Part shown: piece by piece, positions 8,424-9,554 of the stretch
Numbering within the stretch: the first letter of the stretch is position 1
Layout of the letters: the number at the start of each line of letters is the position of its first letter
NCBI RefSeq assembly: GCF_051903065.1
Contig: NZ_CP178442.1
DNA: 37,672 bases
DNA from: Escherichia coli
GTDB lineage: Bacteria; Pseudomonadota; Gammaproteobacteria; Enterobacterales; Enterobacteriaceae
Direction: 5' to 3' (one strand)
The notes under the pieces: generated by a model
The model's input: only the letters and a program-made list of their open reading frames with translations
What the model was told of the DNA's origin: nothing
The model's database searches: none
Position numbers and translations under genes: made by a program

Positions 8424-8439
8424 GTGTATTAATACACAC
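8424..8439. promoter_or_regulatory. perfect 16-bp palindrome TGTGTATTAATACACA upstream of parA (putative operator/centromere-like site)
   Basis: Perfect dyad symmetry 24 bp before the parA ATG; related copies at 9123-9138, 9171-9188, 9520-9540 and an identical copy at 14903-14918. Confidence 0.5.
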
Positions 8440-8462
8440 TATTTAACCGGGAGGGTTTTGTG

Positions 8463-9122
8463 ATGGGAAAAATCATTACAGTTGCAGGGCATAAAGGCGG
8501 CATAGGCAAAAGCACCGTGCTTTGTTCCTTATGTGTCTGTGCCATCAGGAAAGGGAAAACAGCCTGTTTCCTGGAAACAGACTCGCAGGGAAGCATCAAG
8601 GACTTCATTGAGGAACGTAAAACCAACGAGCGGCTGTCTGAAATACCGTATTTCGAGTGCTACACAGATATTCCGGCGATGGCACGAAAACTGGCTGCCC
8701 GCTTTGATTATGTGTTTGTTGATACGCCAGGAATGAAATCTCCGGCCTTCGTTAAGGCACTGAGTTGTGCTGACATTCTGTTCACATTCATTGAGCCAGG
8801 AGCAGGCATCGAGATCAACACGCTGGGACGGCTGGTTTTCGACATTAAAACAGCACAGGCCGGAGTCAATCCGTCAATGAAAGCATGGATTGTCCTGAAT
8901 AAGTGTTCAACTAATCCGTCAGACAGTGAAGCGTCAGAACTGCGCCGACAACTCAATGATGATCCTGACTGGCTTCCGGTTCCCCGCCAGCGTATCTATA
9001 TGCGTACTGCGCATAAAAAAGCCTATAACAGTGGTATGGGCGTACACGAATACGATGATAAACGGGGAAACAAAGCCCGTGGAGAGATTGAATTACTGTT
9101 AAAAGAAACGGATGTTCTGTAA
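8463..9122 (+). CDS. parA: ParA/MinD-family partition ATPase
   Basis: Deviant Walker A motif GHKGGIGKST near N-terminus, Walker B-like hydrophobic stretch DYVFVDTPG; gggagg RBS upstream; followed by a small RHH protein gene. Confidence 0.85.
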   Translation: MGKIITVAGHKGGIGKSTVLCSLCVCAIRKGKTACFLETDSQGSIKDFIEERKTNERLSEIPYFECYTDIPAMARKLAARFDYVFVDTPGMKSPAFVKALSCADILFTFIEPGAGIEINTLGRLVFDIKTAQAGVNPSMKAWIVLNKCSTNPSDSEASELRRQLNDDPDWLPVPRQRIYMRTAHKKAYNSGMGVHEYDDKRGNKARGEIELLLKETDVL

Positions 9123-9188
9123 TGTGTATTATTACACACTATAAGCGATGATATACTCACACCCTTAATAGTGTGTATAATTACACAC
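9123..9188. repeat. two degenerate copies of the TGTGTATTAATACACA-type palindrome between parA and the downstream RHH gene (candidate parS/centromere-like site)
   Basis: tgtgtattattacaca (9123-9138) and gtgtgtataattacacac (9171-9188), each flanked by the associated cacactat / atagtgtg arms. Confidence 0.45.
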
Positions 9189-9215
9189 CTTACTAAAAAC
9201 AGGATACCGAATCTA

Positions 9216-9518
9216 ATGGCAAAGCTCCCAAAGAAAATTGATCAGGAAATTAAACCGCTGGATTTACGCCAGTTTGTAAGTTCTGCTGCACAAAAACCAG
9301 CATCGGCATCCGCAGTAACGCGTATAAATCTGACTATGACAGATGATGATCTGGATACAGCGCAGGAGTTCCAGAACAAGTACGGTGCAAGCCGTGCTGA
9401 AGTAATCAGAGCAGCACTGGCAGCGTTACGTCTGGTATCAGCAGAAGAACGTCGGAGGCTGTTTGATGATATAAGGAAAAACAGCCCGAAAGCAGGAAGA
9501 CCAACCGTGAATAAATAG
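9216..9518 (+). CDS. ribbon-helix-helix centromere-binding protein (ParG-like partner of ParA)
   Basis: 100 aa from ATG 9216 (agga RBS upstream); C-terminal RHH-like segment TRINLTMTDDDLDTAQEFQNKYGASRAEVIRAALAALRL; position directly downstream of parA. Confidence 0.6.
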   Translation: MAKLPKKIDQEIKPLDLRQFVSSAAQKPASASAVTRINLTMTDDDLDTAQEFQNKYGASRAEVIRAALAALRLVSAEERRRLFDDIRKNSPKAGRPTVNK

Positions 9519-9554
9519 AGTGTTTTATTACACACTATTAAAGGGGATAAAAAT

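Follow-up and report, generated by a model that had tools for sequence, protein, structure and literature searches.

Which protein reads the family of palindromes that surrounds the partition genes of an IncX4 plasmid, and does an identical palindrome far outside the partition (par) locus mean that the same protein governs other parts of the plasmid? The question concerns a 37,672-nucleotide (nt) stretch of DNA from Escherichia coli, called the window below, whose sequence is that of the circular 37,672-bp plasmid pSD11 (NZ_KM212169.1), written as its reverse complement and from another start point. pSD11 is an IncX4 plasmid of the MOBP/MPF_T type and carries cfr flanked by IS26 copies. An earlier note on this DNA described a perfect 16-bp palindrome upstream of parA, degenerate copies around the gene that follows parA, and an identical copy at 14903–14918; it proposed that the first group are operator or centromere sites of a ParG-like ribbon-helix-helix (RHH) protein and that the distant copy points to a KorB-like global role. 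Our analysis makes it likely, from sequence, that the palindromes are the binding sites of the 100-residue predicted RHH protein encoded after parA, that they form a type Ib partition cassette together with parA and this gene, and that the copy at 14903 is an orphan duplicate of O1, the first of the par sites.

IncX4 plasmids are a main carrier of mcr-1 and here also of cfr, which is why their partition matters, and in the literature searched it has so far only been touched genetically. No paper in that literature contains the exact motif, and the IncX4 partition papers searched describe neither the sites nor the small protein. The par region is present at an identity of at least 80% in 241 plasmid records, among which E. 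coli is dominant. Attempts to knock out parA of an IncX4 plasmid gave plasmid-free cells and no mutants (PMC11537010).

Palindromic sites of the par cassette

The motif TGTGTA-N4-TACACA occurs at exactly six places in the window, starting at 8352, 8423, 9123, 9172, 9519, and 14903. The 16-mer TGTGTATTAATACACA is perfect at 8423–8438 and at 14903–14918, confirming both the palindrome 24 nt upstream of parA (from 8438 to the ATG at 8463) and its identical distant counterpart. Compared with this 16-mer, the remaining sites carry one (9123–9138), two (9172–9187), three (9519–9534), and two mismatches (8352–8367). The degenerate copies of the earlier inventory all proved to be real, with 9123–9138 placed exactly, 9171–9188 corrected to 9172–9187, and 9520–9540 corrected to 9519–9534; the copy at 8352–8367 had been overlooked beside the five that were named. 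When up to three mismatches are allowed, the six matches stand against 0.15 expected, and none of 100 dinucleotide shuffles reached six. The two 6-nt arms alone give four perfect sites, compared with none in 100 shuffles. A 30-nt scoring matrix was built from 29 sites of relatives that are neither IncX4 nor IncF (L002, L004–L007, L033, and L036). It assigns 31.1–33.8 bits to the six sites, 14.3 bits to the next position in the window, and at most 18.7 bits to shuffled sequence, indicating that the window holds exactly six sites and that the distant one is as strong as those of the par locus. The logo over the relatives extends to about AAATAG-TGTGTA-WWWW-TACACA-CYATTWA, with the downstream half, in gene direction, being the better conserved. 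The five par sites are referred to as O1, O2, O3, O3', and O4 in their order along the DNA (Table 1).

To place these sites in a family context, ten loci were compared in which the small protein is 53–100% identical to that of the window. The hosts are E. coli, Salmonella, Citrobacter, Pantoea, Xenorhabdus, and Erwinia, and the backbones comprise IncX4, IncF, a Pantoea plasmid with an IncFII replicon, MOBQ/LPD7-relaxase plasmids, and Xenorhabdus and Erwinia contigs. All ten loci have parA followed by the small gene, with the motif at the same positions. Relative to the parA start codon, the position of O1 ranges from −100 to −111 and that of O2 from −35 to −41. In eight loci O3 starts 4 nt past the final parA codon, and in nine O4 starts at the same distance from the final codon of the small gene. 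The promoter is invariably arranged as O1, 7–11 nt, the −35 box, 16–18 nt, the −10 box, 10–15 nt, and O2 (10 of 10 loci). O1 and O2 are spaced by 63–71 bp with no fixed helical phase across the ten loci. No genes other than parA and the small gene are common to all ten, and this is our main argument that the binder is encoded within the cassette. O4 is retained in L006 and L007, where the next gene, a relaxase gene, is convergent; the site can therefore not be merely an operator of the downstream gene, which argues for a role beyond promoter control.

Homologues of the small protein are confined to 35 clusters, all from Enterobacterales or metagenomes, and occur in 255 plasmid records. A scan of 100,044 species genomes for the paired-site pattern returned 29 matches, with about 17 expected by chance in a rough calculation. 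Three of the 29 had a homologue of either par protein, and all three had the whole parA–RHH cassette adjoining. The scan added little because a species-level collection contains few such plasmids. Two contigs probably carry a misleading taxonomic label: L031 (JAFAEA010000345.1), a 2.9-kb contig binned as a Chloroflexi metagenome-assembled genome, has the IncX4 parA at 100% identity, and L036 (NZ_ACLQ01000015.1), a 7.5-kb contig in the assembly of Capnocytophaga gingivalis ATCC 33624, has an enterobacterial-type cassette (about 60% identity) in which no site is missing. Contamination or a binning error is the probable cause in both cases.

The gene downstream of parA encodes a protein that is predicted, from a structural model, to adopt the RHH fold. 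A weak Pfam match to RHH_1 (E = 0.029) covers residues 36–70, which is the expected RHH core, and CENP-T_C is matched as well. No ParB or helix-turn-helix (HTH) family was matched in NCBIfam or Pfam. The AlphaFold2 model, based on a 20-sequence alignment, has a predicted local distance difference test score above 90 over residues 41–80 and shows helices at 43–56, 60–71, and 76–88, the third of which lies beyond the RHH core. The strand Val-34 to Thr-40 is unpaired in the model, as expected for a monomer, since the sheet of this fold forms in the dimer. Val-34, Arg-36, and Asn-38 are invariant across the family and Thr-40 is nearly so; these alternate strand residues would face the major groove in the modelled fold, and their invariance matches that of the DNA arms. 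Two tails are likewise unchanged across the family, MAKLPKK at the N-terminus and SPKAGRP at the C-terminus (regions of residues 1–8 and 90–96). The C-terminal tail, with its GRP, is similar to an AT-hook and might reach the A/T spacer between the arms. Foldseek placed Reg576 of p576 on top (E = 0.76, a weak match), and the fold matches are RHH proteins. ParG itself was not recovered, either in NCBIfam, which gave no relevant match, or in PDB searches with the single sequence and with a profile. The small protein is thus ParG-like in predicted role and fold only and not by sequence. The tails and the third helix are annotated in no source, and the name "DMP19 family" given in one source looks wrong.

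Together, the positions of the sites and a predicted RHH protein with invariant Arg-36 and Asn-38 fit a type Ib cassette with a self-repressing centromere binder. Two protein dimers would bind the arms TGTGTA and TACACA, whose centres are 10 bp apart. O1 and O2 flank the parA promoter, and judged by this position an abundant protein would shut the promoter off, resulting in autoregulation. The five par sites, which extend over 1.2 kb and abut the ends of both genes, would jointly form the centromere, at which the basic, lysine-rich and conserved N-terminal tail of the small protein would engage ParA, by analogy with known systems.

Table 1. Coordinates of the par locus features and of the distant element in the window
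Feature	Position	Strand	Remarks
O1, upstream operator/centromere site (predicted)	8352–8367	+	TGAGTAATAATACACA; 33.8 bits; position kept in 10/10 loci
parA promoter	8379–8407	+	TTGCCA-17-TATACT, 10/12 matches; bracketed by O1 and O2; promoter scan
O2, perfect palindrome	8423–8438	+	33.4 bits; from 15 nt past −10 to 24 nt before ATG
parA	8463–9122	+	219 residues; small Walker-type partition ATPase, type Ib; motif GHKGGIGKST
O3	9123–9138	+	first base after parA stop codon; position kept in 8/10 loci
O3', second intergenic site	9172–9187	− (best-scoring strand)	32.4 bits; IncX4, IncF, and L036 lineages only
Small-protein gene	9216–9518	+	100 residues, predicted ribbon-helix-helix; 93 nt after parA, same strand
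O4	9519–9534	+	31.1 bits; first base after small-gene stop; position kept in 9/10 loci
Truncated inverted paralogue of parA O1 and −35 region	14868–14920	−	holds palindrome 14903–14918, 32.3 bits

A tyrosine recombinase gene (7534–8358) extends with its final codons and stop codon into the left arm of O1, which may explain the mismatches in this arm, and the site ends 11 nt before the −35 box of parA. O2 covers, by its position, the start of the parA transcript. ParA has no N-terminal DNA-binding domain. It aligns end to end with the NCBIfam model ParA_partition at 89.8 bits, under the equivalog cut-off of 180 bits, and its closest solved relative is ParF of TP228, aligned over residues 3–215. 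O3' starts 14 nt past a TATACT hexamer (9152–9157) and may act as operator at an internal promoter driving the small gene; the promoter scan called none there.

The copy at 14903 and its neighborhood

The distant palindrome is part of a 53-nt element (14868–14920) that is 85% identical to the reverse complement of 8350–8402, the segment comprising O1, the spacer, and the −35 box of parA. The element has a −35-like box, TTACCA, and the homology stops exactly at the expected −10, where unrelated sequence follows. In the IncF relative L003, a genuine parA promoter and a copy of the 420-bp leading-region repeat adjoin back-to-back. The distal elements of L003, L041, and the window are collinear with this junction, running from promoter spacer through O1 to the start of the repeat, indicating that the distal site is a duplicate of O1 carried along with the leading-region repeat module. 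The homology is clear, and the copy would have arisen by duplication of such a junction, keeping a site of consensus strength and the −35-like box and losing the −10. No sigma-70-like promoter adjoins 14903 on either strand, relaxed thresholds included; the nearest, at 15329–15357, is more than 400 bp away, lies inside the repeat, and has no site. On its sequence, the 14903 copy is a duplicated parA-promoter fragment and not clear evidence of plasmid-wide control.

Conservation of the copy among relatives holds in part. Of 233 records that match a 75-nt element, 144 contain the distal form, and the full 218-nt context is present in 106. The copy is absent from IncX4 plasmids without the toxin-antitoxin module, among them L008, which has no toxin-antitoxin/HTH module and retains all five par sites. 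In the Escherichia albertii plasmid pESA134_1 (L047) the distal site is perfect and its context unchanged, yet neither the small protein nor this ParA has a homologue there. Among eight distinct distal alleles, the 16-nt core varies at one of its 16 columns compared with 23 of 50 columns in the flanks (Fisher one-sided p = 0.003, with some of the outermost flank columns affected by indels), and the most variable part of the flanks is the 8 nt just past one arm. The better conservation of the core speaks against a pure relic and in favor of function. The extra-par sites of IncX4 plasmids and their IncF relatives are close to 420-bp leading-region repeats, at a distance of 25–80 nt from the 5' edge. 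Most likely, judging from these sequence features, the IncX4 copy still binds the small protein and is an accessory site, such as an extra centromere, an insulator, or a titration site, and not the operator of a recognizable promoter.

Several further features were observed around the distal site. A perfect 36-bp palindrome (14945–14980, core GTTAATGCTAATGTATGCATACATTAGCATTAAC) lies between it and the first 420-bp repeat and has a single-stranded DNA fold of −14.5 kcal/mol; it is missing at this junction in some relatives (L041–L045). The 218-nt query is matched by 1,646 plasmid records (IncF, IncI, and others), most of which match only the segment with the 36-bp palindrome. The 420-bp direct repeats (14999–15418 and 17079–17498) are 100% identical; each has a TTGCAA-17-TATTAT promoter near its 3' end, and 1 nt separates the first from the start codon of a J-domain gene (15420). 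The leading regions of IncF and other plasmids contain several related copies, with 1,772 records matching the region, and the repeats resemble leading-region promoter modules of the Frpo/ssi type. On the other side lies a HigA-like "addiction module antidote" gene (14424–14780; TIGR02684, 44.5 bits, below the cut-off), which follows a Phd/YefM-RelE pair (13884–14406). Its usual RelE/ParE-type toxin partner is seen in L009, L040, and L042. The gene in the window looks like an orphan antitoxin left after toxin-gene replacement, because the Phd/YefM-RelE pair stands in the place of this partner. Plasmid pESA134_1 has a different cassette (20630–21950) of an integrase, a ParA, and a 102-residue protein, the intergenic regions of which are full of GGATATC- and GGTATC-like repeats; its sequence suggests a small par system that is analogous but unrelated and has a repeat family of its own. 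Elsewhere in the window, the sole Rfam match is RF02452, "Bacillus sRNA ncr1575" (4529–4746, minus strand, 110.7 bits), and the scan of the whole window gave no match at the palindrome sites. The RF02452 match sits within the IS26-flanked cfr segment, and this location would fit a Gram-positive origin of the cfr insert.

Competing readings

The motif occurs at four leading-region promoters of the Citrobacter plasmid L002, whose small protein is 53% identical to that of the window, and again in the Klebsiella electrica plasmid L049. There it lies 7 nt upstream of the −35 box (TTGACG-17-TATTAT), which is the geometry of O1, and each of the repeated modules is followed after about 112 nt by a start codon, which for the first module belongs to a J-domain gene. 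The homologous promoter modules of the window (15329–15357 and its repeat copy) have no site, and the site-promoter fusion was found in only 2 of 72,556 plasmid records, namely L002 and L049. The predicted leading-region regulon is specific to the Citrobacter/Klebsiella lineage. L002 has an additional site at 21083–21098, which is 61 nt after an H-NS gene and 359 nt before a DUF2726 gene and is directly followed by a TATAAT hexamer on the minus strand; L049 has no site there.

The KorB-like role suggested earlier is thus supported at the level of the family and is weak for IncX4. That 14903 is an active operator in IncX4, through which the partition protein globally silences or pairs the establishment region, appears unlikely. 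The L002 and L049 promoters, the recurrent position of extra-par sites near repeat edges, a core that is better conserved than its flanks, and scores equal to those of the par sites all favor such a role. Against it, the 14903 element is a promoter fragment lacking a −10 with no promoter adjoining, its presence among the matching records is patchy, extending to its absence from L008, and the site-promoter fusion is very rare. A broader and still tentative idea, which we regard as doubtful, is that a family of RHH partition proteins works, as KorB does, through individual palindromic operators scattered over the plasmid instead of the usual RHH repeat arrays, and that it is being wired to leading-region promoters, fully in the Citrobacter/Klebsiella lineage and through one conserved repeat-edge site in IncX4 and IncF, which would couple segregation to the silencing or insulation of early-transfer genes after establishment. 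The Citrobacter and Klebsiella relatives suggest that partition-protein sites can be recruited to leading-region promoters, a point relevant to the shutdown of establishment genes once transfer is over. It is very improbable that the sites belong to another binder, although the persistence of the distal site in pESA134_1 without the small protein would be in keeping with one. The consensus of the host protein CRP is TGTGA-N6-TCACA. The arms of the motif resemble it, with the same spacing and 8 of 10 core bases matching, but all 44 par sites have T at motif position 5 and A at position 12, whereas CRP requires A and T there, and the motif goes with one plasmid cassette and not with CRP-type promoter contexts. 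The motif with its flanks also reads as 10-6-10, like Xer-type core sites, and the overlap of O1 with the end of the upstream tyrosine recombinase gene would suit a resolution site; L003, L004, and L005, however, have the sites and no tyrosine recombinase in the stretch examined, and with four to six copies per plasmid, five or six recombination sites would delete or invert DNA. The HigA-like HTH protein (14424–14780) is a candidate by proximity, its gene ending 123 nt before the 14903 site, but L002, L006, L007, and L008 have par sites and no such antitoxin. On positions 5 and 12 of the motif and the lack of co-occurrence, these three proteins were rejected as binders. Least credible of all is an action of the palindromes in RNA, as terminator or stabilizer hairpins after stop codons. 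The start of O3 and O4 on the first base after the stops (8 and 9 of 10 loci) would suit such hairpins, yet the folds are weak (−4.6 to −8.7 kcal/mol as RNA), none is followed by a T-run, and a terminator scan found none at these sites; the hairpin role was rejected on the fold energies and the missing T-run. In addition, the location of O1 ahead of its promoter, and of the L002 sites ahead of −35 boxes, means that these sites would not be transcribed in the relevant direction.

Binding by the small RHH protein also has points that weigh against it. Known RHH centromere binders use arrays of short repeats and not single dispersed 16-bp palindromes. The arms of the DNA motif and the strand residues of the protein are both invariant, so that the family offers no covariation between them, and the link between protein and sites is one of co-occurrence. 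The distal site is intact in pESA134_1, which lacks the protein, and absent from many IncX4 plasmids, making selection on it in IncX4 uncertain. With these points taken into account, we consider the operator/centromere reading of the par copies, with binding predicted from the sequences, to be well supported by comparison. The probable centromere/operator motif and its predicted binder are targets for incompatibility-based curing, in which cloned sites should titrate the protein, and they offer a clean test case of how an RHH protein reads a 16-bp palindrome.

Comparison with known systems

The type Ib parFGH system of TP228 consists of the ATPase ParF, the RHH protein ParG, and parH, a centromere and operator made up of an array of 4-bp boxes upstream of parF. 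The cassette described here resembles it in having a ParA closest to ParF, followed by a small protein that combines a flexible N-terminal tail with a predicted RHH core, and in having cis sites that overlap the promoter, so that the centromere would also be the operator. It differs in its single 16-bp palindromes (about 24–28 bp with flanks), which are spread over 1.2 kb and also stand after each stop codon, and in a small protein that has no sequence match to ParG, an extra third helix, and the invariant SPKAGRP tail. The par2 locus of pB171 encodes ParA and an RHH ParB, with parC1 upstream and parC2 downstream as arrays of 6-bp direct repeats. As in our cassette, the par genes are flanked by sites at both ends, of which those upstream overlap the promoter; here, in contrast, each position has one palindrome and a site is also present between the two genes.

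Reg576 of the Gram-positive plasmid p576 is, by its PDB title, a plasmid RHH regulator of establishment genes, which parallels the arrangement in L002 and L049, although the structural match to the small protein is weak. We know of no ParA partner of Reg576. The omega protein of pSM19035 (inc18; PMC9499535, PMC3074150) is an RHH centromere binder with sites at several promoters (that of the ParA gene delta, that of its own gene, and a distant one) and acts as both partition adaptor and regulator. The O3/O3' pair before the small gene and the leading-region sites of L002 mirror the sites of omega; omega, however, binds runs of 7-bp heptads, and no such arrays surround the sites here. Unlike the sites of omega, the distant IncX4 site is not at a promoter, whereas L002 and L049 do have sites at several promoters. 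KorB of RK2/RP4, an HTH protein of the ParB family that doubles as a partition protein, binds dispersed single palindromic OB operators, some of which lie just upstream of a −35 box and some far from promoters. Both placements recur here: a −35 box closely follows O1 and the L002 sites, and 14903 is far from any promoter. The differences are that the predicted binder is a 100-residue RHH protein without a ParB domain and that IncX4 has one extra-par site only. In their architecture, the sites come nearer to the operators of KorB in RK2 than to the arrays of repeats that known RHH centromere binders use.

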